Source: a virus. From it: a DNA stretch of 64,000 bases. A program made the position numbers and the translations under genes. Below the pieces are notes generated by a model. That model saw nothing but the letters and a program-made list of their open reading frames with translations. It was not told the DNA's origin and made no database searches. Below are positions 1 to 58,226 of this stretch, one piece after another; position 1 is the first letter of the stretch, and each line of letters starts with the position of its first letter. The stretch spans positions 1-64,000 of IMG/VR virus record IMGVR_UViG_3300035698_007355; one strand, 5' to 3'.

Positions 1-1
1 A

Positions 2-124
2 GATAGTAGACATTTTGATACCATTAAGTCTGTAAAGTTGTCTAATATTAAAGAAGACGTTTGGGATATTACAGTGTATGATGACACACATTGTTTTCAA
101 TGTGATTATGTTATAACTGGAAAC
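2..124 (+). mobile_element. C-terminal end of intein 1 in RNR
   Basis: Block F/G-like VWDITVYDDTHCF...VITGN followed by +1 Cys (CLEQ, the C of the NPCxE active-site motif). Confidence 0.85.
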
Positions 125-12300: not shown

Positions 12301-15300
12301 TTTAATGTAATAAAAATTTGCTGCTAATTCTGTAATGTTCCAAGTATAATTACAATTAGCACCAGAACATAAATTAGCAACTGTGTCGCTAACTATTAAA
12401 TTAGTTGCTGTAGCTTGTGTTGCGCCATAGTAAATAGAAAAGTTACCATTTGTCTTTCCAGACGTAAACCAATATAAGTTCTCACTACTATAAGGAGGTT
12501 GAATTCTCGTTACTGCTCTTGGTGTTGGTAAAAAAGCCCACCAGAATTGGTCATCTGTTGAATAACCAACTGTCCATCCTTCTTCCCAATTTGTAGCATC
12601 AATTGTTCCAATTGTTACATTTATATATCCACTAAATGCTGTATTTTGTAAACTATAATTATTATTTGATGATACTGGAATTGCAAATACGTACGCATAT
12701 CCACAATGTTCTTTATCTGAACAAGTTCCTGTTCCTGTAGCATTTCCACCACCAGTTATATCTCCAACTACTGTATTATAAGAACCATAAGATGCCCCAG
12801 TTGCAAAATCTATCTGTGCATGTCCACTATCTCCGTCTGTATAACCATCAACATTACAATAACCTATTCCGCCTGTTCCTGCTGTAATATTATTTACGTT
12901 AATATTATTACTTCCTACTAATGGATATAAATTTATTTGTAAATAACTAACATTTCCACCAGCCGCTTGATATCCTGTATCTGAACCACCATCTAATCCA
13001 CTAGGTTGAGTAATATTATAAACATTAATATTATTTAATATTCCTGCAAATTCTATTAATATATTCTCGGTTCCTCCTGTTTTAACACAAGTTGCTCCAT
13101 TATTTGTGTCTGCACCACCAGTTCCTCCTTGTCCACTATAAATATTATATATTGTTAAATTGTTAACATTACCAGTATTAGATGTTCCAGTAACTTCAAA
13201 ACTTATTTTTCCACCATCTCTTCCACTCATTGACATTCCATCAAAAGATGTAAGGTCAGCATTTCCACCATCTCCAGCATTTATATTATATATTGTTAAA
13301 TTATTTATATTTGTTGATAACCCATATACTTCTACATTTATATCTGCTCCCGAACCACCCCATGCAGAATCTCCAGGGTCATAATTATCACAAATAGCGT
13401 CCTCTCCTCTTTCTCCTGTATAATCGTGAATTAACACATTTTCTATTACATCGTATGTACCATACAATAAATTTGTGCTTCCTTTATTATCTCCAGCTAC
13501 GCAATCATCATTACAATCAGTAGTACCATCTGTACCAAGTGTATTTCCATGTAAATTTATATTATAAATTTTAGTACCAGTTCCTCCTATAGACAATATA
13601 TATTTCACTGTACCGCCCATGCCCCCCTCTGAACATATATCAGTAGCACCACTTCTATCACCATCTCCACCACTACATCCTATAATAGAATTATCTCCAT
13701 AATTAGAAAATCCATTTATTGTTAAAAAACTTCCAGTTGAATATAATATCTTTGTCTCTCCACCATCTCCCCCATCATTATTTGAACCACCAAATCCACC
13801 ATCACTTCCATTTCCACATTGTGAATAATTAAAACTCACATCTCTAATAGTTGTATTAGATGATGTTCCATAATAAATATACGAATCTCCACCCCGTGTT
13901 CCTCTGTCATCAGATGCAAAATATCCATCTCCACCTCTAACACCTTGTAAAACTATATTTTTAAATAAGTTATTCATTCCTCCAGTATCAATAATACCAT
14001 ATGCGTTTCCTCTAAAATCATCTACATATTGACTACCAGGTGATATTATATCTTCTGTGAAATTAATATATATTAAAGTAGTATTTGAACCCGTTAATAC
14101 AATACCTGCTTTATCATTAGTTATTGGATAATTTACTCTTCCTCCTGCTATATATACTCGCTCTACATAAACATTAGATGTATCTATAAATAATGAAGTC
14201 ATATTTTCATAATTATTTCCTAAAATACAAACGCTTTTATTAACATGTAAATCTGTATCTACTGTTGATTGATTTACATAAATTATATCTCCTGTTGTTG
14301 TTCCACTATCATCTATAGCTAATTGAACTGTAGCAAAATCATCTTGAACTACTATTACATCTCCATTGCACATATCTGGTAAAACAATATTATCATCTGA
14401 AGATGTTGCATTACCAGCATCATTAGATAAAAAACATGATACTCTTATTACGTCACTTACACTAGTTAATGAATTAGATATGTTTAAAACGTTATTATTA
14501 CCATCATTAATATTTGAATAATATGTTGAAGAACTATAAACGTTATTAATATATAACGAACAATTAGCACTATAAAAACCTCCTCCAACTACCGTTGTTG
14601 AATTTAAATAAATTTTTATATCTGTAGATGAATTAACAACAATTGGTGTAAATACTATGTCATTAATTATAGGAGCTCCACTAGGTATATTTAATTCGTT
14701 ATAGTCATAAAGATTTTGTACTTGTGTTGCATTAGCTTCTAATCCTTTATAAATTTTAATTTCATCGAATAGTCCACATCCATATTTATTTATTGTATCA
14801 CTATCACGAGTGTCTAGTCTTGCTCCCAAATACATATTACCATTAAAAGTAGTTATTCCTGCTCTTGATGCGTTATTACAAAAAGCACCATCATAATAAA
14901 CGTTTAAATTTGAAGGACTTGCAGTTGCAACGAAATGATGCCAATTTCCATCCATAATGTCAACACTACCATTATCCGGGTCACAAATAACACCATTAGT
15001 ATGGTAACCATATTGATAAGTAAATCCATAATCGATTGTTGCCCCAGAACCAGTTATTCTATATTCCATATTATTAGTCCATCCACCATCTTTAGCTATA
15101 GACCAAAATCCTGAACATCCTGTAGTATTTTTCCACCAAAAACTGATAGTTTGTTTATCAGAAGCTGGAGTAAAATCATAGTTAGTTGCTCCAAAATCAA
15201 TGTAACTTGTACCATAAGTACTTAAATTATAAGAATAACTACCACCATCTCCACTTATATTAAAAGTAGGAACATCTGTTGAGAAAGGAGTAGTATACAT

Positions 15301-24505: not shown

Positions 24506-25669
24506 CTAACGTTCCTTAGTTAATATAGGTTTTGTATAAATATTTGTAGACTTATCTATTATTGGAACTGTTAATGTATTTTCTAATATTGATAAAATAG
24601 GTTTACTATTTATTTCCTCTACATCCATTATTATTGGTTGTCCAGGCATATCATATCCTAATGATAATATTAATGCGTCCGATTGAATAGTCTCATTAAC
24701 AATTATTTTAATGTAAGCATCTGACTCTATACTCTTTATTGGGCATCCCTCTATATAAGCATTTGAATTAATAGTATTTGTATTGAAAATCTTAATATAA
24801 CTATCTGAATCTAAAGCCTCTGTATTATCAATTACTTTAATAAATGCATTACTTATTAAATCATTTTCATATTCTATTATAACATATGCATCTGAATCTA
24901 TTGTTTCTGTATTATCTAATTTTTTGATATAAGCGTCTGAATCTAAAATTTTATTATAACTTGTTTTAATTTGAGCATCTGAATTAATAGTTGAATCATA
25001 TGTATCTTTAATATATGAATCACTATCTATTATTTCTTCATACGCCAAATGTTTAATTTGAGCATCTGAAATAAGGGTCTCAACATTTAATGTTTTAACA
25101 TATGCATCTGAATCTAAAGTTTCTTCATTATTCAACACCTTAATAAATGCTATACTATTTATACTTCCTTCGTATCCACTTTTCTTAATATATGCATCAG
25201 AATCTAAAGTTTCTTCATAAGTTATTTTAACATAACTATCTGAATCAATAGTCTCATCATAAGTTGTTTTAATGTAAGAATCACTATCTATAATTTCTTC
25301 ATTATTCAATGTTTTAATGTAAGAATCACTATCTATAATTTCTTCGTATGCTAAATGTTTAATAATAGCATCAGAATCTAAAGTTTCTTCATAAGTTATT
25401 TTAACATAACTATCTGAATCAATAGTTTCAATATAAGTTGTTTTAATTTGAGCATCTGAATCTAAAGTTTCTTCATTATCAATTACTTTAATAAATGCAC
25501 TAGAATTAATACTAACTTCATAACCTTCTTTCTTTATGTAAGCATTAGATTGAATTGTCTTTTCATTATCTAACTTTTTAATATGAGCATCGCTATCTAA
25601 AATATTTTCTACTAAACTATAGTAGGATTCTCCATATTTTGCAACGCCGTAATAAGCTGAATAAACCAT
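24506..25669 (-). CDS. Repeat protein with ~20 copies of (E)T[IL]DSD[AS]Y[IV]K, fibre-like
   Basis: 14-16 aa repeats are evident in the translation. Confidence 0.75.
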   Translation of the reverse strand: MVYSAYYGVAKYGESYYSLVENILDSDAHIKKLDNEKTIQSNAYIKKEGYEVSINSSAFIKVIDNEETLDSDAQIKTTYIETIDSDSYVKITYEETLDSDAIIKHLAYEEIIDSDSYIKTLNNEEIIDSDSYIKTTYDETIDSDSYVKITYEETLDSDAYIKKSGYEGSINSIAFIKVLNNEETLDSDAYVKTLNVETLISDAQIKHLAYEEIIDSDSYIKDTYDSTINSDAQIKTSYNKILDSDAYIKKLDNTETIDSDAYVIIEYENDLISNAFIKVIDNTEALDSDSYIKIFNTNTINSNAYIEGCPIKSIESDAYIKIIVNETIQSDALILSLGYDMPGQPIIMDVEEINSKPILSILENTLTVPIIDKSTNIYTKPILTKER

Positions 25670-40798: not shown

Positions 40799-41560
40799 AT
40801 GAAAAATATTATTATAGTTGGGTATGGGGAAGTAGGAAAAGCAATTTATAAAACAGAGAATAATATTGAGAGTAATATTAAAGTTTTTGATACTGATGGA
40901 ATAATACCAAGTTCAACATTAGATGAAAAGAGAGGAATAGATATAATGCATATATGTATACCATATTCTAATAAATTCACATCTATTGTAACAACATATG
41001 CTAAAGAATATAGCCCAACACTTATAATTATTAATTCAACTGTTAAAGTTGGAACAACACGAAAAATAAGAGAAGCTATTGATAAAGACCATGTGAAATT
41101 TATTGTGCATAGTCCAATTAGAGGAGTACATCCTAATTTACATGCTGGAGTAATGGTATTTATAAAATATGTTGGTGGGGATGAAGAATCTACAAAAATG
41201 GCATTAGGACATTTTAAAACATTAAACGTAGAAGCTAAGATGTTAGGAAATTATGAAACAACAGAGTTAGCAAAGATTATGTCAACTTCATATTATGGTT
41301 GGAATATATTATTTGCGAAAGAATGTAAAATAATGTGTAATCATTATGGTGTAGATTATGATAAAGTATATATAGAACCTAATAATACATATAACGACGG
41401 GTATAAGAAGCTGGGAATGAAAAATGTGGTGAGACCTGTACTAACTCCCCCAGAAGGAAAGATTGGGGGACATTGTATAGGACCTAATTATGAAATGTTA
41501 CCAAATGCTAACAACACATCAAGTTTGAGAAAAATATATAGAGAGTTAGATGAAAAATGA
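40799..41560 (+). CDS. UDP-glucose/GDP-mannose dehydrogenase family protein, short form lacking the C-terminal domain
   Basis: IVGYGEVG Rossmann motif, INSTVKVGTT, ELAKIMST, IGGHCI. Confidence 0.85.
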   Translation: MKNIIIVGYGEVGKAIYKTENNIESNIKVFDTDGIIPSSTLDEKRGIDIMHICIPYSNKFTSIVTTYAKEYSPTLIIINSTVKVGTTRKIREAIDKDHVKFIVHSPIRGVHPNLHAGVMVFIKYVGGDEESTKMALGHFKTLNVEAKMLGNYETTELAKIMSTSYYGWNILFAKECKIMCNHYGVDYDKVYIEPNNTYNDGYKKLGMKNVVRPVLTPPEGKIGGHCIGPNYEMLPNANNTSSLRKIYRELDEK

Positions 41561-41796
41561 GTAATATGATACCAAAGTGGATTACAGAAGATTTAATAAG
41601 ATATACTTTTGTAAAAGATGCTAGAATTAAAGGAACATATTTATACATAGATTATATTGTTGATGGGGATATTAAAACAAAGAAAATTGCTAGAAGAACA
41701 ACACTTGGGTTGTTACAAAAGATTTTAGCAGATATGAAAGAAAAAGTAGGTGAGAAGAATGAAGAAGTATACAGAGGAAATTACTACGTCATCTAA
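41557..41796 (+). CDS. Hypothetical protein
   Basis: Translationally coupled ORF. Confidence 0.5.
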   Translation: MSNMIPKWITEDLIRYTFVKDARIKGTYLYIDYIVDGDIKTKKIARRTTLGLLQKILADMKEKVGEKNEEVYRGNYYVI

Positions 41797-42016
41797 GGAC
41801 GTTAAACTAATACATTGTAAGGTTATTGGCGGGACACAGGCAGACATTTATGAAATAGGAAATGCAATGAGTAAATTTAAAAATAGTTTACCATTTAGAC
41901 TAGAAGCAATCGTGACTAACGACACAGTAACATTACAAGATGTTGATACGCTTATAAAAGAACTATACAAGCTTAAAAAATCAATAGATATCGATAAAAG
42001 GCTAGGAAAGGAGTGA
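41759..42016 (+). CDS. Hypothetical protein
   Basis: ORF with GGTGA RBS. Confidence 0.5.
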   Translation: MKKYTEEITTSSKDVKLIHCKVIGGTQADIYEIGNAMSKFKNSLPFRLEAIVTNDTVTLQDVDTLIKELYKLKKSIDIDKRLGKE

Positions 42017-42432
42017 GAAAAATGAATAAAGAAAGTTGTCCAATTTGTGAACATACAATTTGTGAAGAATTTGTAGTAGATTTAATGATTTGTTCTAATT
42101 GTAGTCACGTATTTAAGAAAAAAACAGAATTAGAAAAGGATAAAAAAGAAGTAGGTCTTCACTTATATAATAATCCTATTGATACTGTTAGGGAAATTAC
42201 AGATAAAATGGAAGATTCACAAGTTATAGAATTTAATTTTCCTAGTATGAACTTTTATGCTTTGGACTTACATCCAACAGATTTTTATAAGTCAAGTATT
42301 AATCATTACTTTAATCAAATGAGTCTTATGATATTACTACGAAGATGTAGATTAAAACCAATTAAACAAGAAAATAAATGGAATAAAGACGAGACAATGT
42401 GTATAACAAATATTATTTGTCGGAGGATATAG
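42013..42432 (+). CDS. Zn-ribbon protein resembling a reduced sugar methyltransferase
   Basis: CPIC...CSNCSHVF; HYFNQMSLMILLRRC; no SAM-binding motif. Confidence 0.45.
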   Translation: MRKMNKESCPICEHTICEEFVVDLMICSNCSHVFKKKTELEKDKKEVGLHLYNNPIDTVREITDKMEDSQVIEFNFPSMNFYALDLHPTDFYKSSINHYFNQMSLMILLRRCRLKPIKQENKWNKDETMCITNIICRRI

Positions 42433-42433
42433 A

Positions 42434-44497
42434 ATGGAGAATGTTATAATTACTGGTGTGGGTCAAGATGGTTATTATTTAAGTATTAAATTACTTGAGA
42501 AAGGTTATAAAGTTATTGGTATTGACCAATGGCAACATAAAGGTTATAATGATAACTACAAAGAATTAATGGAACATAAGAATTTCAAATTAATAGAAGG
42601 AAGTATTACTGATAGATATTTAATGAAACGAATTATAAAAGAATATCAACCTAAATATTTTTTTAATACAGCAGCTATTAGTCATGTAGCAGTATCATTT
42701 GATATTCCAGAATTAACTTTCGATACAAATACTATAGCACCTTTAAACATATTAGAAGAATTGAGACATAATAGTCCTCATACTAGTTTTCTTCAATGTT
42801 CTACAAGTGAACAATATGGAGATTTTGAAGAAACTCCTCAATCAGAAGAAACTAAAATGATGCCTAATAGTCCTTATGCGATTGCTAAAGCAGCTACTTT
42901 CTTTATGGTTAAACTTTATAGAAAATATGGATTAAAAACATATAATACAATATGCTTTAATCACGAATCAATACCAAAAGAATCATCTATAACATTAAAA
43001 CATAATAATAGATTACAAATAATACCAATTTGTGATTTATTTTATAAGCGCGGAGATAGATTTAGAGGATTTAATAAAAAATATATTGGGTCACAAGTAT
43101 GGGACGGTGATAAATGGACTAAAATAATTGATGGTACTTGTTATCAAAAGAAAAATAAACCTATGAAACTTATTCAAACCAGAGATGCTTGTTATGAGTC
43201 TACACTTGAACATAAAACATTTTTAAATGATAATTCAGAAATAAATACTGAAGATGTTAAAAAAGGCGATGTGGTATATGAAACATTTGACCCAATTATA
43301 AAAGAATATGAAACTATAGATAAAGATTTAGCATACGCTATTGGATTTATAGTAGGCGATGGATATGTTTCTAAATCTGGTTATATAAGATTAACTGGAT
43401 GTGATAAAAAAGAAATAACAAAAATTGCGAATATTATCAAAAATAAATTTGGATGGTCTTATAGAACTTATAATTCCGGACCAGGAAATTGGGAAAATTG
43501 TGTAAATGATGTATATCAAATCGATTTTAATAATGATGTAAATTTTGGATTATGGTTACGAAATTCAATATATTCAAAAAATACAAATAAAAAAATTGTT
43601 CCAGAATACATATTAAATGGAAATACCGATATTAAGTTAGGATTTTTTAAAGGGTATTATTTAGCAGATGGAAGAAAAACTGGTAATGAAACATATGAAT
43701 TTAAAGGATTTACTACAAATTCTCAAGCCCTATGTATGGGGTTAAATCACATTTGTAAATTAGTATTAAATCAAATACCAAAAACTAAATGTGTTATAAA
43801 AGGAGATAAAAGATATTATTATACACAATTAAGAAATACTAATACAAACCTAGGGAAAGGCGCTATTAAAAAACTAAATGAAGTAATATCTATAAAAAAT
43901 ACTAAAAATCCAGATAATTGGTTTTTTGATATTCAAACAGAATCAAAAGCATTTGTAACTGGACCAAATACTTTTAAAGTTCATAACAGTGAAATTAGAC
44001 CTGATAATTTTGTTACAAGAAAAATTACAAAGACTCTAGCTGAAATGATGGTTGGTAAAGCAGATAAACTAACTTTAGGAAATATGGATGCAAAAAGAGA
44101 TTGGGGATATGCTCCAGACTTTATCGATGGTATGATTACTATTATGGAGTCAGACGAGCCAGATGATTACGTTTTAGCTACAGGCGAGACACATACTGTT
44201 AGAGAATTTGTAGAAGCAGCTATTAAAGCACTTGGTCTAGATATTGTTTGGGAAGGAACTGGCGTTAATGAGAAGGGCTCGATTTTAGCAAGAGACCAAA
44301 ACGGAAATCCTATAATAATCAAGAAAGATGCAGTAGTTGTAAACAAAGATTTTTATAGACCAGCAGAAGTAAATGTCTTATTAGGAGACCCTACTAAGAT
44401 AAAAGAAAAATTAGGTTGGGAACCAACAACTAAATTTACAGAACTAGTTGCTAAAATGGTTAAGAATGACTTATTATTATGTGAGGAACAAAAATGA
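42434..44497 (+). CDS. gmd: GDP-mannose 4,6-dehydratase with intein
   Basis: ITGVGQDGYYL, AAISHVAVSF, STSEQYG, SPYAIAK, FNHE|S..FVTRKI, LGNMDAKRDWG, FYRPAEV. Confidence 0.93.
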   Translation: MENVIITGVGQDGYYLSIKLLEKGYKVIGIDQWQHKGYNDNYKELMEHKNFKLIEGSITDRYLMKRIIKEYQPKYFFNTAAISHVAVSFDIPELTFDTNTIAPLNILEELRHNSPHTSFLQCSTSEQYGDFEETPQSEETKMMPNSPYAIAKAATFFMVKLYRKYGLKTYNTICFNHESIPKESSITLKHNNRLQIIPICDLFYKRGDRFRGFNKKYIGSQVWDGDKWTKIIDGTCYQKKNKPMKLIQTRDACYESTLEHKTFLNDNSEINTEDVKKGDVVYETFDPIIKEYETIDKDLAYAIGFIVGDGYVSKSGYIRLTGCDKKEITKIANIIKNKFGWSYRTYNSGPGNWENCVNDVYQIDFNNDVNFGLWLRNSIYSKNTNKKIVPEYILNGNTDIKLGFFKGYYLADGRKTGNETYEFKGFTTNSQALCMGLNHICKLVLNQIPKTKCVIKGDKRYYYTQLRNTNTNLGKGAIKKLNEVISIKNTKNPDNWFFDIQTESKAFVTGPNTFKVHNSEIRPDNFVTRKITKTLAEMMVGKADKLTLGNMDAKRDWGYAPDFIDGMITIMESDEPDDYVLATGETHTVREFVEAAIKALGLDIVWEGTGVNEKGSILARDQNGNPIIIKKDAVVVNKDFYRPAEVNVLLGDPTKIKEKLGWEPTTKFTELVAKMVKNDLLLCEEQK
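42968..43987 (+). mobile_element. Intein (340 aa) with LAGLIDADG endonuclease in Gmd
   Basis: Starts SIPKESSI after FNHE; IGFIVGDG and KGYYLADG motifs; ends FDIQTE...KVHN|S. Confidence 0.9.
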
Positions 44498-45522
44498 ATA
44501 AATTAAAAATTGGATTTGCAGACAACCTCTATGGAACCCCAAAAGGCCATAGTTATGTTGTCAGAGATATGGTTAAAATATTTAAAGATGAAGGACATGA
44601 AACTCATATGTACAGAATAGGAGACAATCCTATAGATGTAGAATTTGATATCCCAGACACTATAAAATCTTTTACAGGTAGAAATTTACCAAAAGATGAA
44701 TTTATAGCTTGGATTAAAGAAAAAAAACTTGATTATTGTGTATTTATGGAATATCAACAATGGTGGAATGAAGATTATGATAAACTTCAAGTATGTAAAG
44801 ACCTTGGAGTTAAAACAGCAGGATTTTTAGTATGGGAAAAACTAGATTGGGATAAATTAGAGCATTATAAATTATATACTAAAATATTATGTCCTACAGG
44901 ATTTCAAACTAGATTATTAAGAGGAAAAGGGCTTATGAACGCAGTACATACTCCTTGGGGAGTATTTAAAGATGAAATAGATAAAGTATTTATGCCTGAA
45001 CGAGAAGATGATAACGTAGTATTTTATCATTGTGCAGGTAGTGGTGGAGTAGAAAATAGAAAAAATACAGATGCTGTAGTAGAAGCATATAATAAAATAA
45101 AAGATGGAAATACAAGATTACAAATGACACACTTAGGTAAAAAAGTATTTAATAGAAAAGAAATAATATCTTTTATGAAATACTCAGATGTATTAATAAA
45201 TACTGCTAAATGGGACACTATAGGATTAAATTCATTAGAAGCTAATATGTGTGGTAGTCCAGCAATAGTAGTTGATATGGACCCCATGAATGAATTGGTT
45301 AAGAATAATACTAATGGATTTACAGTCCCTGGAAAACTAGGAGAAAGTAGAATAGTTACTTGCCCTATTTATAATGTTGACGTTGATGAACTAGCTAAAA
45401 AAATGGAAATATGTAAAAATAAGATAGTTTTAGATACTCTTAAAAGTAGTTCAAGAAAATTTGCAGAAATTAACTTTGATTGGGATATTAATAAAGAATT
45501 TCTTTTAAAACATTTTAAATGA
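44494..45522 (+). CDS. GT4-like glycosyltransferase
   Basis: SDVLINTAKWDTIGLNSLEANMCGSPAIV...PMNELV...NGF. Confidence 0.88.
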   Translation: MNKLKIGFADNLYGTPKGHSYVVRDMVKIFKDEGHETHMYRIGDNPIDVEFDIPDTIKSFTGRNLPKDEFIAWIKEKKLDYCVFMEYQQWWNEDYDKLQVCKDLGVKTAGFLVWEKLDWDKLEHYKLYTKILCPTGFQTRLLRGKGLMNAVHTPWGVFKDEIDKVFMPEREDDNVVFYHCAGSGGVENRKNTDAVVEAYNKIKDGNTRLQMTHLGKKVFNRKEIISFMKYSDVLINTAKWDTIGLNSLEANMCGSPAIVVDMDPMNELVKNNTNGFTVPGKLGESRIVTCPIYNVDVDELAKKMEICKNKIVLDTLKSSSRKFAEINFDWDINKEFLLKHFK

Positions 45523-45531
45523 GGTGTAATA

Positions 45532-45735
45532 ATGAAAAATAGTTGTCCTTTTAAGGACGAATTAATTGAGATAATACAAATGAAGACTGCTCCAATATGT
45601 TTTCATTGTGGTAATCCTTATATTAGGGATTTAATACATTGTGGGGCTTACCATAATACGTGGATGCCTAATTGTAAATGTCTCAGTAAAACAACAATAA
45701 GAATAGTAACTGGAAATGGATTTAGAATCGAATAG
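45532..45735 (+). CDS. Small Cys-rich protein
   Basis: CFHC...CKC; GAGGTG RBS. Confidence 0.5.
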   Translation: MKNSCPFKDELIEIIQMKTAPICFHCGNPYIRDLIHCGAYHNTWMPNCKCLSKTTIRIVTGNGFRIE

Positions 45736-45743
45736 GTGAAAAA

Positions 45744-46823
45744 ATGATAAGAATAGGAGATTTCATTCCTGAGAAGAAACATATAGACGCAGTTCTAGAA
45801 GTTATTAAATCAGGACGTATAACAGAAGGCTCAAAAGTTAAAGAACTAGAGAAAGTTATGGCTAAATACCTAGATGTAAAACACGCAATACTTACAACAA
45901 ATGGAACAGTAGCTTTACAATTAGTAGCAACATATCTAAGACATAGAGACAAAGATAATGTTAATACAGCTATTCCAGCTATGACATTTCCAGCAACTAT
46001 AAATGCATTTGCTGTTGGTGGATTTCCAGTAGCTCTAGTAGATATTAAAGAAGATTTACAAATAGATATTGGTAAAATCACAGATGAAATGAAACCAAAT
46101 ATTGATATTATAGTACCTGTACATCTTATGGGGTATACAGCAGATATGGATAAAATTATGGCTGACGCTGAGAAATATGGTTGGACAGTTGTTGAAGACG
46201 CTTGTGAAGCGTTTGGGTCAGAATATAAAGGTAAAAAAGTAGGAACTATAGGACACTTTGGTTGTTTTAGTTTTTATGTATCACATAACATAACAGCAGG
46301 AGAACTTGGTATGGTTGTAACAAACGATGACGAAGCTGCTAAAATTATGAGAAGTATGAAGAATCACGGAAGAACAGGAGATTCAATGAAATTCCTACAC
46401 GGATATATTGGGTCTAATTATAAAACAACAGAATTCACAGCAGCTATAGGATTAGCTAATATGGAGAATGTTAATGATATTATATCTGAGAGAAAAGCAA
46501 ATTGTCAATACTTTTTAGATAATATCAAGAATGATAATTTAATATTATTTCCAGTACCAGAAGGGTTTAGTCCATTAGGATATCCTATAAAATGCTTAAC
46601 CCCTAAATATAGAACAAAGATTTGTAAAAAATTAAATGATAATAATATTGAAACAAGAGACATCTTTCCTTGTCTAGCTAACCAGGACGCGTATAGAGTG
46701 CATTTTAGAGACTCTAATCTCCCAGTAGCAGATACACTAGAAAAAACTGTTTTCTATATAGGATGTCACCAATTTTTGTCTGAGAGCGATAAGAAGAAAA
46801 TAATAGAGGTATTATCAGAATGA
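45744..46823 (+). CDS. DegT/DnrJ/EryC1/StrS aminotransferase (perosamine synthase-like)
   Basis: NGTVAL, PVHLMG, VEDACEAFGS, FSFYVSHNITAGELGMV, GSNYK. Confidence 0.9.
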   Translation: MIRIGDFIPEKKHIDAVLEVIKSGRITEGSKVKELEKVMAKYLDVKHAILTTNGTVALQLVATYLRHRDKDNVNTAIPAMTFPATINAFAVGGFPVALVDIKEDLQIDIGKITDEMKPNIDIIVPVHLMGYTADMDKIMADAEKYGWTVVEDACEAFGSEYKGKKVGTIGHFGCFSFYVSHNITAGELGMVVTNDDEAAKIMRSMKNHGRTGDSMKFLHGYIGSNYKTTEFTAAIGLANMENVNDIISERKANCQYFLDNIKNDNLILFPVPEGFSPLGYPIKCLTPKYRTKICKKLNDNNIETRDIFPCLANQDAYRVHFRDSNLPVADTLEKTVFYIGCHQFLSESDKKKIIEVLSE

Positions 46824-47896
46824 AATTATTATATATAGCATTAGACTCATTAAATCATTCAATAAGGATTTGTAACGAACTAGTTAAGAAAGGATATGAA
46901 ATAACCTTAGTTGCTATGGATGAAGATTATTATGATAATGAAAATATTCCAATTCCAGATAAAAAAATTAAATTAATTCAAGATACTTTAAAAAACATTG
47001 AAAATCCTGAAACATTTCCATATGATAAAGTTAAAGAAAAATACGATATGATATTTGGGTCAACAATGAGATGTGCTCCAATATGTTCAGTATTAAAAGG
47101 TAAAATGAAAATTCCTTGGTATAATATGGTATTAGATATACCAACTCATTTACTTATGAGATATAAAGCACGTAGAGAATTATGGGAGACAATATATTTA
47201 CCATCATTAGACTATGCAGATAAAATATTACTTAATACTAATATTGCTATGAGTGAATATAAACGAATAACTGGTAATAGAGCTAAACCTTGTGATGTAG
47301 TAACTTATCCAACACACTTACCAAGTAAGTTCTTTATGGAAGGACTTGGAAAAAGAGGTGACTATGTTATATCAGTTGGAAGATTAGTTGCTGAAAAAAA
47401 CTTTATTATTATTCCAATAGCATTATCAATGATTAAAGGAATTAATAAATATGTAGCGATAGGACCTGACAAAGGCCAATTACAAAAAATAAAAGATATG
47501 TGCAAGCAATATGGAGTAGAATTCGAACATTATACAAATGTATCAGGAGAAAAAAAGATGGAACTCATAAGTAAAAGCGCAATGATGATTTATCCACAAC
47601 ATACTGAATATATTGGTGGATTACCACCTTATGAAGGAATGTTTTGTGGAAAACCAGTAATTTGTTCAATGTATAAAATCTTAATAGATTTATATGGACC
47701 AAATGCATTATATTTTACACCAGGGGAAGTTTTAGAGCTTGCAAAGAATATTTCATTTGTTATGAGTTGTAAAGATGAACTTTATGAAAGGTTAGGACAA
47801 AATGCAGCAGAATTTGCTGAAATTGAAGCTGGATACGAGAAATTTGCAGATGGTCTGCATAATTTTTTAGAAAATAAAAAAGAGGAAGAAAAATGA
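46820..47896 (+). CDS. GT4-like glycosyltransferase
   Basis: SVGRLVAEKN; GGLPPYEGMFCGKPVICS. Confidence 0.88.
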   Translation: MKLLYIALDSLNHSIRICNELVKKGYEITLVAMDEDYYDNENIPIPDKKIKLIQDTLKNIENPETFPYDKVKEKYDMIFGSTMRCAPICSVLKGKMKIPWYNMVLDIPTHLLMRYKARRELWETIYLPSLDYADKILLNTNIAMSEYKRITGNRAKPCDVVTYPTHLPSKFFMEGLGKRGDYVISVGRLVAEKNFIIIPIALSMIKGINKYVAIGPDKGQLQKIKDMCKQYGVEFEHYTNVSGEKKMELISKSAMMIYPQHTEYIGGLPPYEGMFCGKPVICSMYKILIDLYGPNALYFTPGEVLELAKNISFVMSCKDELYERLGQNAAEFAEIEAGYEKFADGLHNFLENKKEEEK

Positions 47897-48047
47897 ATAG
47901 TAATACAACAGATATTAAATATACATTTACATATGTACCACCATTCCGTTATTATGAAGAATGTGATTGTGATATATGTCCGTGTTGTGGTAAACGAAGA
48001 CGAAGAAGTCTAGATAAGCCTTGGATAGTAACTTGCGGAGGACAACA

Positions 48048-49049
48048 ATGAGTGATATTTTATTAGCTTGTCCTATGGAGGATGGACAATCAGGAACATT
48101 TATACAAGAAGCTCTATTAGAGTTAGATTATAGAGTAGCAGTATTTGATTGGAGAAAATTCGGAAATACATATGGGCAAGAAGGATTAAATAAAGAATTT
48201 ATAGATGCTCACAAAAAACTTAAACCAGATTTAACAATTATAATTAAGGGTGGCGGGATAGAATCAACTACAATAGATAAAATTAAAAAATTCCATAAAG
48301 GAAAAATTGTTGGATGGATATTTGATGTTACTTTAGGAGGAATTTACATAAAAGATATACCACGATATGTAGATTTTTGTAAATCATTAGATATTTTTTT
48401 CACAATAGACGCAGAAGCAGTTCCAGAGTTAAATAAACTCGGAATTAATTGTAAATGGCTTCCACAAGGGTTTTTTGAACCACTATATAGAGAACAAGTG
48501 TTTAATTATGTTCAAAAAAAGAGATTTGGGTCAGATATAGCATTTATTGGTTCAGTTGGGTCATTTCATCCAGAAAGAGAGAAATTTTTAAAAAGATTAC
48601 ACCAAGAAGGGTTTTATTTCAAAATTTATGGCGAAGTTTTATATCCAGAAGGTAAAGAACCTGATTGGGTAGTAGAACATCATACAGGATTTGCTGTAAA
48701 GAATGATATACACTCAGTTGTAGTTGGGTCAAGTAAAATTATGATAGGATTAGATGGTTGGCCTCATAGAGACAAGTCGTATTCACTTAGACTTTATAAA
48801 ACATTAGGAGCAGGCGGATTTTATTTAATGAATCATACAAAAAATGTTGAAGAAATATTTACACCAGGAGTTCACCTTGATACTTTCAAAGATGAAGATG
48901 AAATGGTTGAAAAAATCATAGAATATTTAAATGATGATGATTTGAGAGAAAAAATAGCAAAGGATGGGCAAGAAGAGGTATTAAAAAATCACACACAGGA
49001 GGTTGTAATGAAAAAACTATTAAAGGGAGTGTTAGAATTAACGGAATAA
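48048..49049 (+). CDS. CgeB-like glycosyltransferase
   Basis: DIAFIGS...ER, SLRLYKTLGAGGFYL, LREKIAKDGQEEVLKNHT. Confidence 0.85.
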   Translation: MSDILLACPMEDGQSGTFIQEALLELDYRVAVFDWRKFGNTYGQEGLNKEFIDAHKKLKPDLTIIIKGGGIESTTIDKIKKFHKGKIVGWIFDVTLGGIYIKDIPRYVDFCKSLDIFFTIDAEAVPELNKLGINCKWLPQGFFEPLYREQVFNYVQKKRFGSDIAFIGSVGSFHPEREKFLKRLHQEGFYFKIYGEVLYPEGKEPDWVVEHHTGFAVKNDIHSVVVGSSKIMIGLDGWPHRDKSYSLRLYKTLGAGGFYLMNHTKNVEEIFTPGVHLDTFKDEDEMVEKIIEYLNDDDLREKIAKDGQEEVLKNHTQEVVMKKLLKGVLELTE

Positions 49050-49089: not shown

Positions 49090-50745
49090 ATGCGAACATA
49101 TAAGGAAATGATTAAGGATTACTTAATCTGGTTCAATCAACGACAAAAGGAACAGGGAACACCCGAAGAAAACTTAGATGATTATTTTAGAGAAGAATCA
49201 CAAGAAGCTACAGTAAAAAAAGGTAAAGTTTGGGCAGAAATATTAAGATTGTCTTATTTACCAGAAGAAGGGATATTTTGGTTCACAAAATTCATTTTAG
49301 GAGACTTAATGTATGCAGGATATCCAAATCCAATACGATTTAACCATTTATGGTGGAAATGGACTAAAATAGCCAATTCCGGTGACCATATTTCAATAAA
49401 ATGTTCAAGACAGCATGGAAAATCAACATATTGGACTGTTTTACAATCGATTTATAGGACAAGTATGTTTGAACATTATAATGTACTAATAGAATCAGCT
49501 TCAGAAGACCAAGCAGTAATGCTTATGGGATATATTGTTAATATAATTAATAATAATGAATTCCTGCAAAATAAAAAAGCTAAAAGTGCTAAATGGAGTA
49601 CAACAGAGATTAGTTTTAATGGTGGAAAAATAGTTGGTAAGGGTGTAGGGTCAGAAGTTAGAGGTGGAACTTATGATTATATAGTTGCTGACGATATTTT
49701 ACGTTCAGATAATAAATTAGGTGATGATGACATAGAAAAATTCGTTGGAGAAGAGCTAGAAGCTATGATTTTCGTCCGAAAAGGACAAATGGTGCTTGTA
49801 GGGACTCCAAAATCAGAATCAGACATATTTTCAACGATTGATGAACGAATTTACAATGGGTCATCAGGTTGGAAACAATATACTTATCCAGCAATATTAA
49901 ATTGGGACACTAAAGAAATATTATGTCCTGATAGGTTTACTTGGGACCAATTAATGCGAAAAAGACAAATTATGGGTAATATGAAATTCGATAAAGAATT
50001 TATGTGTCAAACTTATAGCAGTGGGTCACAATTATTTCCTAATGAGTTGCGTAAACTAGCAATGGATAAAGGAAAACAATATAAATTATATTCAAAGGCG
50101 AAGCCTGAAGAAATTAGTAAAATAGCATATTATATTGGGGTAGACGTTGCACGAGCTGGTACAGCTAGCGCAGATTATACAGTAGCAACTGTAATAGCTT
50201 ATAACACAGAAGACCAAACCAAACGAGTTGTATGGTTATGGAGAAAAAAAGGTTTAAAAATAAATGAACAAGTAAGTCAAATAGCTGAAATATCAAAACA
50301 ATTTAATAATCCAGTAATTTTAGTAGAACAGAATAATATTGGACAAGACTTTATAGATGAGATGGTAGATAACTACAATTTAAATGTAGAAGCATTTCTC
50401 ACAACTAAAGGTAGTAAATATGAAGATTTGATTAGATATTTAGTAGCAGCGTTTGAAAATGAGAAAATCATATTACCAACAGGTAACGATTTTAGTAAAG
50501 AAGTCATTAAAGATTTAGATAGGGAATTGGAAAGATTTGTAGTTGAAATCACAAAAGCTGGCAACGAAGTATTTAAAGGGTCAGGACATTCACATGATGA
50601 TATGGTGATAAGTCTTGCATTAGCTAATAGGTGTACTCAAAGTTATGGGTATTCACCATTTTCAAGTTCGTTGTCAACTAAAAAATCATCTGCTTTAGAG
50701 AATTTTGCAGCAACCGGGGATTTAAGAGAAGTACTTAGATTTTAG
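49090..50745 (+). CDS. terL: Terminase large subunit
   Basis: Walker A SRQHGKS, Walker B YIVADD, VGTP, nuclease motifs IGVDVA, ADYT, HDDMVISLALA. Confidence 0.95.
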   Translation: MRTYKEMIKDYLIWFNQRQKEQGTPEENLDDYFREESQEATVKKGKVWAEILRLSYLPEEGIFWFTKFILGDLMYAGYPNPIRFNHLWWKWTKIANSGDHISIKCSRQHGKSTYWTVLQSIYRTSMFEHYNVLIESASEDQAVMLMGYIVNIINNNEFLQNKKAKSAKWSTTEISFNGGKIVGKGVGSEVRGGTYDYIVADDILRSDNKLGDDDIEKFVGEELEAMIFVRKGQMVLVGTPKSESDIFSTIDERIYNGSSGWKQYTYPAILNWDTKEILCPDRFTWDQLMRKRQIMGNMKFDKEFMCQTYSSGSQLFPNELRKLAMDKGKQYKLYSKAKPEEISKIAYYIGVDVARAGTASADYTVATVIAYNTEDQTKRVVWLWRKKGLKINEQVSQIAEISKQFNNPVILVEQNNIGQDFIDEMVDNYNLNVEAFLTTKGSKYEDLIRYLVAAFENEKIILPTGNDFSKEVIKDLDRELERFVVEITKAGNEVFKGSGHSHDDMVISLALANRCTQSYGYSPFSSSLSTKKSSALENFAATGDLREVLRF

Positions 50746-52862: not shown

Positions 52863-52936
52863 GCCCTTGTAGCATAATTGGCTAGTGCAGTTGGTTTGTA
52901 ACCAACAGGTTGTCGGTTCGACTCCGACCAAGGGCT
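52863..52936 (+). tRNA. tRNA-Thr(TGT)
   Basis: Acceptor GCCCTTG/CAAGGGC; anticodon arm GTTGG-ttTGTaa-CCAAC; T-loop GTTCGAC; no encoded CCA. Confidence 0.92.
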
Positions 52937-52945
52937 TTTAGTATT

Positions 52946-53020
52946 GGGGCTGTAGCATAATCCGGTTAATGTGCCTGGCTGTTGACCAGAGGATTACAGG
53001 TTCAAATCCTGTCGGCTCCG
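52946..53020 (+). tRNA. tRNA-Asn(GTT)
   Basis: Acceptor GGGGCTG/CGGCTCC; CTGG-ctGTTga-CCAG; T-arm ACAGG-TTCAAAT-CCTGT. Confidence 0.85.
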
Positions 53021-53027
53021 CTTTTAT

Positions 53028-53099
53028 GCGTCATTGGTGTTAACGGTAGCATCTCTGGCTTCCAACCAGATGGAGTGAGTTCAAATCTTGCATGGCGCA
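53028..53099 (+). tRNA. tRNA-Gly(TCC)
   Basis: Acceptor GCGTCAT/ATGGCGC; TCTGG-ctTCCaa-CCAGA; T-loop TTCAAAT. Confidence 0.88.
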
Positions 53100-53102
53100 T
53101 AT

Positions 53103-53981: not shown

Positions 53982-54918
53982 TTCTAAAGAAAAAATGCAA
54001 TGAAGACTATAGAAAATCGTTGTGAGCGTAAGCGAGGGGATATTCTATCTCGATGGGACGGTTACGGGATAACAAATAAGATTTGTTACGTGTAGTAATA
54101 GGTTTTCTAAAATTTTAAAAAATTTTTCCGGAGGTACAGTATACACGTCTTATTAAATAAGACAGTAACTATTCTTTTTTAAGCTTATTTTTCATTGTTA
54201 CTACTCTTTAGTAACGTCATTTTGAAAATAAGTCAAATTCAAAAATCTAAAAGTAACTCGAACTTTTTCAAATCGAAACTTTTTTTCTCATAGTCGATTA
54301 ACGATAGTTAAGTCACTACTCTTCAAGGGCAACACTCGCACTAACGTCGCATCACATTGTCGCCCCTTCGCAGTAGTAACACTGTGTTGTTATTCTTTAG
54401 TAGTATATTGTTGTTGTTACTTAATAGTAATAATAATATTGTTATTCAATAGTAGTAACAAAAATGTTGTTTTAATGATTTAAAGCTTGTTTTAAGCTTC
54501 TTTAGTCATTTAAAGCTTGTTTTAGTCGAATGAACAAAAACAAAAACAATTTAAGCACTTTTTCTTTATTTAAAGACTAATTTAATCTATGATTATAGTA
54601 AAAAAGCTGTTTGCTTAAAACTTTTAATCATATCTTACAATCTTAATAAAAAAAGTCTTATAAACAAAACCTTTATAAAGAGTACTTCACATAATAATAA
54701 TATAAACAATCAAAAAAAAGTGTCTTAACAGAAGATACACGCATAACGAAAAAAGCATTTATAAGTAAAACTTTAAAATGCTAAATCTGAAACTTAGAAA
54801 TGAATAAAAGCATTTCGATTTATACTTTTCTTTTATAGTTAATGACGAATATTTAAGAGCAAAAAAAGTTTATAATCTTTTCTTTACGAAAGTTAAAAAA
54901 GATTTGAGAGTGTGAAAA

Positions 54919-55266
54919 ATGTCTAAAACAAAAATCGTTTTAAGTGAAATTAGTTTAAGTGAACAATTAAAGACTGCAAAAGCTTTAGTTTTAGAGCAAA
55001 ATGCAAAAATCGCAGAACAAACAAAAGCTATTGAAGAGCAAAAAATTAAACTTGCGAATTCAAAAGTGATTAAAACAGAATCTGAATTTTTCAGAAATAA
55101 AGATGTCGAAACTGCGAAAGTCTTTAAAAATATGTCAGAAACAATAAAGTTTTTTGAAGTCAAATTTCCCGATTTTGTAAAACAGATTTGTGAAGATGAA
55201 AAAAAAGTTTTAATAACTGCAAACGAATTTCATTATGTAATAGCAAGAAAGCTAAATCTTAAATAA
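54919..55266 (+). CDS. Early protein, paralog of 56303-56590
   Basis: Coiled coil plus SEFF..FKNMSETIKFFEV..P...C...FH. Confidence 0.75.
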   Translation: MSKTKIVLSEISLSEQLKTAKALVLEQNAKIAEQTKAIEEQKIKLANSKVIKTESEFFRNKDVETAKVFKNMSETIKFFEVKFPDFVKQICEDEKKVLITANEFHYVIARKLNLK

Positions 55267-55315
55267 TTTTTTTTATTTTTTTTCTTTTCAAATAAAAAAA
55301 TAAGAGTGTGATATT

Positions 55316-55578
55316 ATGACTAAAAAATTACAAATAGATTATATAAAATATGTTGATAACGTAATTATATTTAAAGACGTAAGAAAAAAAGACGAGTTGA
55401 TGAAAAAAAGAATATAAAACAACAAATCGAGAAAAACACAAAAGAAATCGAAAATAAACTATATGTTGAAATTTGCGAAATTATCACGAATGAAAATTTA
55501 AAAGATAGTGAAAAGACAAAACAAATAATAAACGTCTTTAAAGATTTCGATTTTTTTAATAATTTAGAACAATATTAA
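55316..55578 (+). CDS. Small ORF split by a -1 frameshift in an A-run
   Basis: MTKKLQIDY...VRKK continues in the -1 frame to NNLEQY*. Confidence 0.4.
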
Positions 55579-55628
55579 TAATTTTTTCTTTTCTTTTTTA
55601 GTAAAATAAAATAATGTGAGATGAAAAA

Positions 55629-55811
55629 ATGACAGATAAAATAAAAGAATTAATAGAAAATATTGAACAATTAAACGAAACAATACGAGAAACACAACAA
55701 AAACGAAAAGAACTAAAACAAGAATTAATTTATAATTTAGTTTCGGAAAGTGATTTTTTTAGTATTAATGTAAATCTTAAATCATTAACAAACAGATATT
55801 TAAGAAATTAA
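55629..55811 (+). CDS. Small coiled-coil protein
   Basis: ORF followed by a T-tract. Confidence 0.55.
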   Translation: MTDKIKELIENIEQLNETIRETQQKRKELKQELIYNLVSESDFFSINVNLKSLTNRYLRN

Positions 55812-56266
55812 TTTTTTTCTTTTTTTTTGTCTTTCTAATTAACGATAGTGAATTATATAGTCGAGCTGACGTCGATGTGCGCCTGTCGCCCCTCGCCAAT
55901 AGTAACACGACTTTATTCATACGGCGCTTATGTGACCTAATTACAACTGCAAAAAGGTGGCCGACTGTGTTCTTCTGGCGTTAATGCGGCCTAATTCTAA
56001 CTACAAAAAGTTGACGGGCTTTCTGAACAGGTGTTAGTGTGGATTTCGCCTCTGGCCAGTAGTAACAACGCCTCTCGCATTGTCGCCCCTTGGCAGTAGT
56101 AACACGGTGCCGCCCCTGAACAGTGATAACAGGTTGTTACTACTCTTGAGTGGTACCACATTGTCGCCCCTCTCCAGTAGTAACAAGGCGTTGCCACTGT
56201 CCAGTAACAAAAAAAGTGTTACTACTATATAGTGGATATTGTTGTTCATTTTTGGCCAGTGAAAAA

Positions 56267-56281
56267 CGAAACCTTTATATA
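56267..56281 (+). promoter_or_regulatory. BRE-TATA promoter
   Basis: CGAAACCTTTATATA about 22 nt before ATG 56303; related motifs at 54665, 56862 and 58086. Confidence 0.75.
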
Positions 56282-56302
56282 CTAGTCTTCATTACTAATA
56301 TT

Positions 56303-56590
56303 ATGGCAAAAGAAAAAAGTGTCGAGGCAAACGACCAAAAAGAACTTGCGGCTCTTAGAGCAGAAAATGAGGCTTTGAAAATCGCCTTATCAAAAACAGG
56401 CAAAAAAGAAGTTTCGGACTTTTTCTTTGTTGAGAAAACAGGCCTACCAATGAAATGGACTAACGTTTCGGAAACAAAAAAGTTTTTCGAGATTAACAGG
56501 CCTGAAGTTTTGGTTGAACTTTGCAAAACTTTGAAAGTGGAAATGCTTTCGTCAGCACAATTTCACCAATATCTTTTCGGACTCAAATGA
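56303..56590 (+). CDS. Early protein, paralog of 54919-55266
   Basis: MAKEKSVE...SDFF..WTNVSETKKFFEI..P...C...FH; real start is probably 56303. Confidence 0.75.
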   Translation: MAKEKSVEANDQKELAALRAENEALKIALSKTGKKEVSDFFFVEKTGLPMKWTNVSETKKFFEINRPEVLVELCKTLKVEMLSSAQFHQYLFGLK

Positions 56591-56957
56591 GTCCATTTTT
56601 TTTTGATTTTCAACTTAACGATAGTGAAGTGATGTTGATGTAGCCTTTTGCCTCTAGCCAGTAGTAACACACATAGTATGAAATGGCGCTAATGCGGCCT
56701 ATTTGTCTCTCCTAAAAGGTGGCCGAACTTATCAGGGCTATCACATTAGCCACAGACCGATTGCCTTATACCATACATATTGTTATTTAAGGATGTGTGT
56801 AACACTAATTGCTGCCTAAAAAAGTTGACCGAGTCACTATACACTAATGAATCGTGAAAAACGATAAGTTTATAAAGATTAGAATTAATACTATATTAGG
56901 CGCAAGAAAACTTGCTGTCTCGCCTTAGCGTTGTGTCGTAAACAACTGCCACAAAAA

Positions 56958-57459
56958 ATGAGTATATTAAACCTGTTTAAGAAGAAAGCCACAGTATATG
57001 TGGATTGGAATGCATTTCAAGACTTTATGGACTTCCACTCTACACACCAATTTCAACAAGACGTGCGGAAATCTAACTTGGAGGCTAAAAAATGAAACAA
57101 AATACAAAGGATATAAAAAATACCATACTAGTGTTAATTCTCTATATGGTAATTATAGTAGGATTTTTCTTACTAGGAGGGCTTTAAAATGATAATTGAG
57201 ATAGCCATAATAAGTCTGGCAAGAAGAAATGGTGGTTATAAAATTCCCACCGACCCATTTAATCCAATGTTTGATGCAAGATATCCATTAACTCTAGGAT
57301 ATAATATGGAGGTGGATTTAAATGTGTAAACACAAATGGTACCGAGAACTTAAAGCACCTTGCATTAGAGGAGGATGGCTAATGGTATATAGATGTCATT
57401 GGTGTAGAATTGTGGATTTCAAATACGACCACGATAAAGAATATATTAAGCCCCTATAG
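56958..57459 (+). CDS. Cluster of tiny ORFs (56958-57095; 57092-57187, one TM helix; 57322-57459, Zn-binding)
   Basis: Manual translation; ATGA overlap and GGAGG RBS. Confidence 0.4.
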
Positions 57460-57475
57460 GGGCTCCTTTTTTTTT
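57449..57475 (+). terminator. Hairpin plus oligo-T terminator
   Basis: AGCCCC-TATA-GGGGCT followed by T9. Confidence 0.7.
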
Positions 57476-57835
57476 GTTGCTGAAACTTAACGATAGTTAA
57501 TTGGTTCAATTGGCGTTGCTGTGGCCTAATTCCTTATGGAAAAAGGCACCCGAGTTATTTGAACAGGCGTGTGTGTGGCCTAATTCCCTCTCCTTAAAAA
57601 ACCTGGGGAAAAACAACCTATAGTAAGGGGGTTTTGTGCTTGGAATGCAAAATCTCCCCTAGTAAGGGTATTTAGTTAGGCCTTCAACCAGACGGACAGT
57701 CTCCACATAGCCACCAGACCGAAGGCGTAGGCCACAGTCCATCAGGATTTGTGCTTAAAAACGAGCCACAACAATATATACCTATATAGAGAGTAGAAGT
57801 TTTTCAGGAATCTAATGAGAGGCGAGGGAGGAATA

Positions 57836-57918
57836 CTATACTTGAGCCTATACCTCCAGCTATACTTGAGCCTATACTTGAGCCTATACTTTCCTATACC
57901 TCCAGCTATACCTAAGCC
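57836..57918. repeat. Tandem 12-bp repeat (CTATACTTGAGC / CTATACCTCCAG), 7 units
   Basis: Directly visible; one unit is 10 bp. Confidence 0.85.
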
Positions 57919-58226
57919 TTCTCAACAGCTTCCAAACCTTTCAGGATATTGTCTCTTACCAATGGTATTACTTACTAGGATATCTTGTAGCGGTTTTTGT
58001 TGCGGAGTGTTACTACTTGGATATAGTGAAACGTATTCTCTACTGGACAGTAGTTACAAAAGTGTTACTACTGGCTCGTGAAAATGACAACATTTATATA
58101 CTCACGAATCAATACTATACTAGGTTGAAAATCTATGATGAACCACTTCCACTAGCTATTGGTAAACTTTTTTTATTATAGTGGTGGAAAGTCTCCAAGG
58201 AGAGTTCATAGAGAGGTAAACTAAAA

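Follow-up and report, generated by a model that had tools for sequence, protein, structure and literature searches.

The IMG/VR record IMGVR_UViG_3300035698_007355 is a single viral contig of 96,731 bp with 31% G+C; the window discussed here is its first 64 kb (64,000 nucleotides). It belongs to a tailed virus, with a tape-measure protein, a portal and a large terminase all encoded. Replication genes are of the archaeal type (a family-B polymerase with an intein, RadA, the large subunit of primase and a PCNA-like protein), and the promoters are of the B recognition element (BRE)/TATA type. On the plus strand, 3.4 kb downstream of the terminase gene, a conserved boundary element is followed by a block in which the dinucleotides GG and CC are nearly absent; this loss is called the purge below. 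Four tandem modules occupy 54.2-58.2 kb, the block being the first; each consists of a T-tract, the motif TTAACGATAGT, repeats of AGTAGTAACA, a promoter of the consensus type and small genes. The locus has the following features (window positions; ORF, open reading frame):

49090-50745, plus strand: large terminase subunit (PHROG 38 at 8.5e-46, Pfam Terminase_6C)
52863-53100, plus strand: tRNA cluster found by ARAGORN closely upstream of the block, with Thr(TGT), Asn(GTT) and Gly(TCC)
54109-54174, plus strand: conserved single-copy boundary element, with an A/T tract, CCGGAGG (54128-54134) and an invariant ACTATTC (54168-54174)
54135-55881, strand not assigned: GG/CC-purged block, the first of the four regulatory modules
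54189-54470, strand not assigned: operator-like repeats TGTTACTACT / AGTAGTAACA and GG/CC-free variants of them (repeat families D2, D8, D9 and D15)
54298: module-start motif TTAACGATAGT
54660-54680, plus strand: archaeal-type BRE/TATA promoter of the block operon, matching the promoter consensus of the genome (23 sites)
54906-54915, plus strand: respelled Shine-Dalgarno sequence GAGAGTGTGA, in which one base splits the GG of GAGGTGA
54919-55266, plus strand: ORF1, 115 aa, 'SET' family, one Pro and no Gly or Trp
55304-55578, plus strand: split Shine-Dalgarno sequence (55304-55311) and ORF2, from three-frame translation
55616-55811, plus strand: ribosome-binding site GTGAGATGA (55616-55624) and ORF3 (55629-55811, 60 aa), which is free of Gly, Pro and Trp
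55812-55838, plus strand: T-tract terminator closing the block operon, recognised from its sequence (repeat family D5); the next module runs from 55839
55839-58226, plus strand: modules 2-4, which share the start motif, the operators and the type of promoter with the block and include the paralog of ORF1 at 56303-56590

The block has 23.6% G+C and contains 9 GG/CC dinucleotides where its own base composition predicts 48.7 (z -6.4). In 20,000 shuffles of the block the minimum was 24. Its GG/CC-free gaps of 576, 498, 305 and 194 nt are the first, second, fourth and seventh longest of the genome. The observed/expected ratio (rho) is 0.18 for the block and 0.28 in the lowest window of the scan, and windows of the same size outside the block are all at 0.58 or above. 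CG (rho 1.73 in the block versus 0.62 genome-wide) and GC (1.32) are both enriched, so G and C have been retained, yet never beside their own copy. A sequence-only reading of this DNA had proposed selection against GG/CC in this block, and its description holds. The depletion stands in the comparison of observed and expected counts with shuffled controls, the list of residual sites is complete (54327-8, 54363-5, 54670, 55168-9 and 55745; none besides), and TCGA, AGCT, ACGT, CG and GC are kept, as claimed. The second-lowest GG/CC region of the genome, at 24506-25669, is a leaderless gene of 387 aa on the minus strand with 24% G+C. As a second purged region (24.5-25.7 kb) it was rejected, its 27 GG/CC versus 37 expected being not significant.

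Relatives were all recovered with the terminase as query: the search of metagenome contigs gave relatives 54-77% identical, and an alignment-based search of IMG/VR gave L025, at 44%. Six lineages in all, this genome and five others with terminases 44-77% identical, are purged at the same place. In each relative the longest GG/CC-free gap of the locus lies inside the purge, downstream of the terminase (at 0.3-5.2 kb) and in the syntenic position. The five further lineages in which the block is thus present (the sequence-only reading had suggested looking for it in relatives) are:

L016: 0 GG/CC in 846 nt
L012: 8 GG/CC versus 55 expected; G+C of 32% in the block and 34% in the flank
L007: 4 GG/CC versus 31.5 expected
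L019: 1 GG/CC versus 11.8 expected
L025, distant (terminase 44% identical): 0 GG/CC in 694 nt

In L016 and L025 the purge stops within a gene or operon, not at a transcript end, and in L025 it tapers off across a zone of transition (10 versus 15.5 expected). L025 also carries a pair of paralogs (17754 and 18881, 65% identical), with 10 GG/CC in the copy near the element versus 38 in the one farther away; of 10 Gly/Pro residues in the distal copy, 7 have been exchanged in the proximal one. The resolution of the terminase tree is too poor to date gain or loss of the purge.

The purge reaches the signals of translation. GG is found within 22 nt upstream of 133 of 158 genes of this genome. In the block GAGGTGA is turned into GAGTGTGA, and at the same position into GAGCGTGA in L007, L012, L016 and L025. 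This GAG-N-GTGA respelling, made by inserting C or T, is thus shared by five viruses. The only two GAG[CT]GTGA sites of the genome (54908 and 55304) both fall in the block, 3-4 nt ahead of an ATG, and the respelled words are rare elsewhere: two GAGAGTGA sites precede an ATG outside the block of this genome, and one GAGCGTGA does so outside the L019 block. The three ribosome-binding sites (54906-54915, 55304-55311 and 55616-55624) are spelled as the sequence-only reading gave them, and the three block ORFs have one Pro and neither Gly nor Trp, again as it described. Over 11 block ORFs (838 aa), 4 Gly/Pro/Trp residues were found where 93 are expected.

Amino-acid content alone was ruled out as the cause by a synonymous-site test, the non-coding DNA and the ribosome-binding sites. 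With protein sequences fixed and the codon usage of the genome applied, 13 ORF segments from six viruses hold 7 GG/CC versus 38.1 +/- 6.0 (z -5.2; minimum of 17 in 5000 resamplings). The non-coding DNA from the element to the first start codon holds 40 versus 96 expected; in this genome the block promoter contains one tolerated CC (54670) and is followed by a leader of ~220 nt free of GG/CC. When the transcribed parts are pooled, GG occurs 1 time versus 58 and CC 7 times versus 49, so that both strands are depleted. The two dinucleotides are lost in every context, including codon junctions and Shine-Dalgarno sequences, and a codon or tRNA-level cause was also ruled out, junctions and leaders being purged as well.

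A trivial origin, that is, AT-rich low complexity, a foreign insert, misassembly, or proteins devoid of Gly, Pro and Trp by chance, would agree with the low G+C of the block and with its small, helical proteins. The base-composition and synonymous-site tests argue against it, as do the purged non-coding DNA and ribosome-binding sites, the L012 block at the G+C of its flank, the agreement of independent assemblies of six lineages, and the operators, promoter and paralog common to the block and the neighbouring DNA. Since the purge is repeated in independent relatives, AT-richness, misassembly and a foreign insert are excluded, and we regard an artefact of any of these kinds as extremely improbable. 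Selection against GG/CC, as the sequence-only reading proposed, is strongly supported by six lineages, by synonymous sites, by non-coding DNA and ribosome-binding sites, and by conserved Trp and Pro residues that have been overridden.

These residues were found in the family of ORF1. ORF1 homologs are the first block gene in L007, L012 and L019, and ORF1 is 33% identical (E 6e-10) to the paralog at 56303. A profile search of 1.84 billion representatives returned 75 members of the family. Gly, Pro and Trp together number 0 in 38 of the 75 and 1 in 5 of the 75, with a mean of 6.4 in the remainder. Four residues before an invariant Ser-Glu-Thr, 19 of 27 normal copies have Trp, whereas 25 of 36 purged copies have Tyr or Phe and none has Trp. 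At +11 of the SET motif, Pro is present in 20 of 27 normal copies and in none of the purged ones. Purged and normal states are interspersed on a poorly resolved tree, with 21 changes on the best tree and at least 2 forced by strongly supported branches; copies seem to have been re-purged or released upon changing place.

The replacements also bear on a mutational footprint, in which a CC-specific cytosine deaminase or like damage would act, without selection, on DNA that is often single-stranded by the element. G+C is lower in the block than in the flanks in most lineages, and the effect is one-sided and limited in distance, as such damage would produce. On the other hand, CG and GC are enriched (rho 1.1-2.9) rather than lost, the L012 block keeps the G+C of its flank, the Shine-Dalgarno sequence is respelled by an inserted C or T, and the ORFs remain open. 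Trp has become Tyr or Phe, where deamination of TGG would yield stops, and 22 of 36 Pro replacements need transversions. An APOBEC-like deamination footprint was rejected because the replacements are not transition products of CC/GG, and damage of this general kind is improbable. That strong, ongoing purifying selection on the nucleic acid itself keeps the block free of GG/CC is strongly supported.

Selection on the nucleic acid depends on place. The ACTATTC of the boundary element sits 40 nt beyond a CCGG-type core, and a 47-nt spacing is fixed in this genome and in L007, L008, L011, L012 and L013. ACTATTC is invariant in the alignments, L025 included, and the element occurs once in the genome. 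In each purged lineage the purge starts at the element and extends in one direction only. When genomes are anchored on ACTATTC, observed/expected is ~1 leftward and ~0 rightward for 0.7-1.7 kb, and then ~1 again. The element overlaps 54130-54165, where the sequence-only reading had predicted a genome terminus, and may be a terminus or packaging site, or else an unusual start site. In L011 (3296-4086) and L013 (12345-12694) the element, operators and promoter are kept, and the first operon has different genes and normal GG/CC.

A physical requirement of the DNA could be thought of here, with GG/CC steps avoided near a packaging or ejection end or an origin for reasons of flexibility, A-form propensity or unwinding. 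The block does start at a conserved cis element near packaging genes and beside an iteron-rich region. We know of no mechanical rule that singles out GG/CC, and CG and GC steps, whose stacking is no weaker, are enriched. The length of 0.7-1.7 kb varies with gene content, and L011 and L013 manage without a purge. A requirement of this type therefore has little to recommend it and is judged about as improbable as mutational damage.

The other modules serve as an internal control. Module 1 has a rho of 0.20, and modules 2-4 have 0.97, 1.26 and 1.33. The same promoter motif precedes modules 2-4 (repeat family D6), and the transcription unit of the paralog at 56303 has 20 GG/CC versus 20.8 expected, so that it is normal, as the sequence-only reading had noted. 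From the normal modules 2-4 and from the two paralog pairs (54919/56303 in this genome, and that of L025) it follows that position decides, not gene family or promoter class. Exact AGTAGTAACA copies are concentrated in this region, 11 of the 13 in the genome lying in 54196-58072, and the repeats probably bind one regulator. The copies frequently form inverted pairs, some 40 nt upstream of the promoters of the four modules. Modules 2-4 are filled by GC-rich companion motifs, of the TCGCCCCT type and a 42-nt GGCG..GGCCTAATT repeat. In module 4, upstream of the promoter, there is a tandem array of CTATACTTGAGCCTATAC units with a 12/24-nt period (window 57836-57920).

Selection could also act on RNA, if the earliest transcripts had to lack GG/CC in order to resist a dinucleotide-specific endoribonuclease, whether of the host or of a viral host shut-off, or in order to stay unstructured. 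T4 RegB, which cuts GGAG in Shine-Dalgarno sites, is a model for this. The depletion is indeed most extreme from the promoter on, with 1 GG in ~3.8 kb of transcribed block in five viruses; the GG of the Shine-Dalgarno sequence is removed, and the whole block would be transcribed if the boundary element were a start site. Other observations are hard to accommodate. Sense-strand CC is also down 7-fold, with no sign of antisense transcription, and in most lineages a 2- to 4-fold purge is seen in the DNA upstream of the recognisable promoter. In addition, modules 2-4 are unpurged despite the same promoter and operators, and in L016 and L025 the limit of the purge falls within a gene or operon instead of coinciding with the end of a transcript. 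We consider selection on RNA unlikely.

Besides its own consensus promoter, the block has two or three small, fast-evolving ORFs, whose proteins are mostly basic or neutral. ORF2 runs for 33 aa to a stop at 55417, and a shift of 1 nt at a run of seven A (55401-55407) opens 53 further codons; the break may reflect an assembly error in the homopolymer, a frameshift of recent origin or programmed slippage. The end of ORF3 resembles, by eye, the N-terminal half of the SET family. The AlphaFold2 model of ORF1 (pLDDT, the predicted local distance difference test, of 79) has a long N-terminal helix followed by a small alpha/beta domain, for which no fold match was found, Foldseek and VIA-align having matched the long helix alone. 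The phage collection had no near or protein-level match to the block or to ORF1, and in the word-indexed search the only close homolog of ORF1 was ORF1 itself. In viral_contigs and genome_contigs no loci were recovered with the flanking proteins or the SET-family alignment. Rfam gave one chance hit only (KRAS_3UTR, E 0.29, under the gathering score).

Avoidance of short motifs is not confined to the block. GATC has 0 sites genome-wide versus about 230-280 expected, and the flanks of close relatives have 0 versus 88 expected. CATG is found 68 times versus 303 expected genome-wide (22%), CTGCAG is absent and CTTAAG is very low. The flanks show a weaker depletion of palindromes than the blocks do: pooled over the blocks, GCGC occurs 0 times versus 7.6 and CATG 1 time versus 7.9, and ACGT, TGCA and AATT are lower too. 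This lineage demonstrably evades DNA-targeting defences through motif avoidance. L025 has both GATC and CATG sites and retains the GG/CC purge. The under-representation of short palindromes recalls the avoidance of type II restriction sites, but the loss of GG/CC is not limited to recognition words.

We tentatively favour, at somewhat less than even confidence, a reading in which the block is leading or immediate-early DNA hidden from an agent that requires GG/CC, for example one that depends on a protospacer adjacent motif (PAM) of CCN/NGG type in a CRISPR system, or another short-motif activity. The first regulatory module and its operon of small genes, to the right of the boundary element, would make up this DNA. 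As the leading or earliest-acting part of the genome, it would have to function before any viral protein exists, and it would stay invisible to an agent that needs GG/CC on incoming DNA, such as CRISPR adaptation and interference that depend on a PAM (CCN/NGG type), or some other activity that targets DNA through a short motif. Two or three small block proteins would then take over or disarm the host, and the rest of the genome could afford GG/CC. In this scheme the block would be the first DNA to enter or to be expressed, the agent would be a defence system, the block proteins would act against defence, and the boundary element would be a genome end. The total purge of a dinucleotide speaks for a recognition of 2-3 nt (a PAM, for example) and not for restriction sites of the classical kind. 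CCA-type phosphorothioation, one of the defences that the sequence-only reading had considered, is disfavoured, as each of the five CC that remain in the transcribed L007 and L012 blocks is a CCA.

Several features of this reading have counterparts in known systems. The first-step-transfer (pre-early) DNA of T5 is without EcoRI sites. This segment at one end of the T5 genome has lost a defence motif that the remainder retains, encodes small early proteins and is followed by a repeat-rich region (in part PMC12455610); the block, as putative leading DNA, would be its counterpart. In T5 a 6-bp site is missing over about 10 kb, whereas here a bare dinucleotide is purged over 0.7-1.7 kb, which costs three amino acids and the Shine-Dalgarno sequence, and the host is archaeal. 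The local absence of a motif that marks leaders of the T5/T7 type is found here, with a rho of 0.18-0.20 in the block versus 1.18 in the rest, and five relatives are alike in this. To our knowledge, no dinucleotide purge, protein recoding or respelling of ribosome-binding sites has been described for the leading region of Autographiviridae. The order of a terminase gene, a junction, and then early promoters and small genes is shared with T7 and other Autographiviridae, and in T5 and T7-like phages selection by restriction systems is concentrated on first-injected DNA (PMC12455610); in Autographiviridae and T5 the only region where restriction motifs matter is the one injected first (PMC12455610). 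The motif missing there is one bipartite type I motif, and the block proteins here are not Ocr-like.

Depletion of PAMs in phage genomes has been published as a weak, genome-wide effect (PMC12174588; PMC4246573), and CC-PAM depletion is found in phages targeted by type I-F systems (PMC12174588). CC/GG are common PAMs, CCN being that of type I-A in Sulfolobales (bioRxiv 10.1101/486738). As in these cases, a motif of 2-3 nt is under-represented here on both strands. The difference is in distribution: the published cases are genome-wide, whereas here a single cassette is purged 5- to >30-fold in a genome with a rho of 1.18. Avoidance of restriction sites is a further likeness, in a lineage without GATC, with little CATG and with palindromes still rarer in the block, but it removes specific words of 4-6 bp and does not predict the loss of GG/CC in all contexts. 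In the literature we found no published description of a dinucleotide-purged cassette.

The same genome offers some grounds for another explanation, namely that viral DNA is modified in a GG/CC context and the immediate-early module is kept free of targets, either for the host RNA polymerase and regulators or against modification-dependent restriction. The virus has a gene for an N6/N4 DNA methyltransferase next to that of a Vsr-like endonuclease, genes for two more S-adenosylmethionine (SAM) methyltransferases and a cluster of sugar-nucleotide and glycosyltransferase genes, and a purge of two strands fits a mark on duplex DNA. Among the ORFs scanned no deazaguanine or hypermodification genes were found, the sugar cluster may serve virion proteins instead, and modules 2-4 share the promoter type yet carry abundant GG/CC. 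Such a modification is unlikely, marginally more so than selection on RNA. The specificity of the N6/N4 DNA methyltransferase could not be inferred. The sugar-nucleotide/glycosylation cluster lies directly upstream of the terminase (window 40799-49049) and comprises a UDP-glucose dehydrogenase-like gene, a GDP-mannose 4,6-dehydratase split by a LAGLIDADG intein, together with a DegT aminotransferase and three glycosyltransferases. Genes for a Cas4/Dna2-like PD-(D/E)XK nuclease, the Vsr-like DUF559 endonuclease and the N6/N4 DNA methyltransferase lie at 70624-71655, 78834-79556 and 80956-81756 of the genome (6624-7655, 14834-15556 and 16956-17756 of locus L023).

For the reading that we favour, of a leader hidden from a GG/CC-requiring agent, there are difficulties as well. 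Genome-wide, GG and CC are not depleted at all (rho 1.18). Removing GG/CC abolishes a minority of the possible restriction sites, so that classical restriction-modification alone would be insufficient as the agent. The lineage of L011 and L013 has the element and an unpurged first operon, and the stronger purge of the transcribed part than of the DNA upstream (40 versus 96) also fits a cause at the RNA level. Searches of Pfam and PHROGs gave no function for the block ORFs and no anti-defence family among them. A genome end at the element receives no help from the assemblies, which read straight through it, or from the terminase, which is 21-26% identical to a mixture of headful, direct terminal repeat and other types and from which the packaging mode could not be inferred. 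Finally, the closest named cellular homologs of RadA (45-50% identity) are from Woesearchaeota and Nanobdellota, and a DPANN host, suggested by this similarity, is only a guess. The contig start (window 1-2023) and end (about 11400-12731 of locus L024) fall within one intein-bearing gene. As both ends lie inside one gene, the record is circularly closed or arbitrarily opened, and it is uninformative on the ends of DNA in the virion.

Whatever its cause, the block bears the imprint of selection in clean, quantitative form; this selection overrides ribosome-binding sites and conserved residues across dozens of divergent lineages of virus, and no known agent accounts for it. It is possible, though we hold this with less confidence than the hidden-leader reading itself, that the purge reports a new activity that reads a bare dinucleotide on incoming DNA in an archaeal, possibly DPANN, host, and that the virus counters it in the manner of T5 with an 'unreadable' leader of 1-2 kb which enters or acts first. 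Proteins free of Gly, Pro and Trp provide a cheap screen of metagenomes for such cassettes. If the agent were PAM-dependent CRISPR, PAM-free leaders would make it possible to predict, with nothing but sequence, the PAM of the host and the polarity with which the genome enters; with another agent, the block would be a ready-made assay for exposing it. Should the block be leading DNA, its proteins would be anti-defence candidates, the boundary element would be the genome end, and the locus would be the first evidence of positional immune evasion of the T5/T7 style in an archaeal virus.

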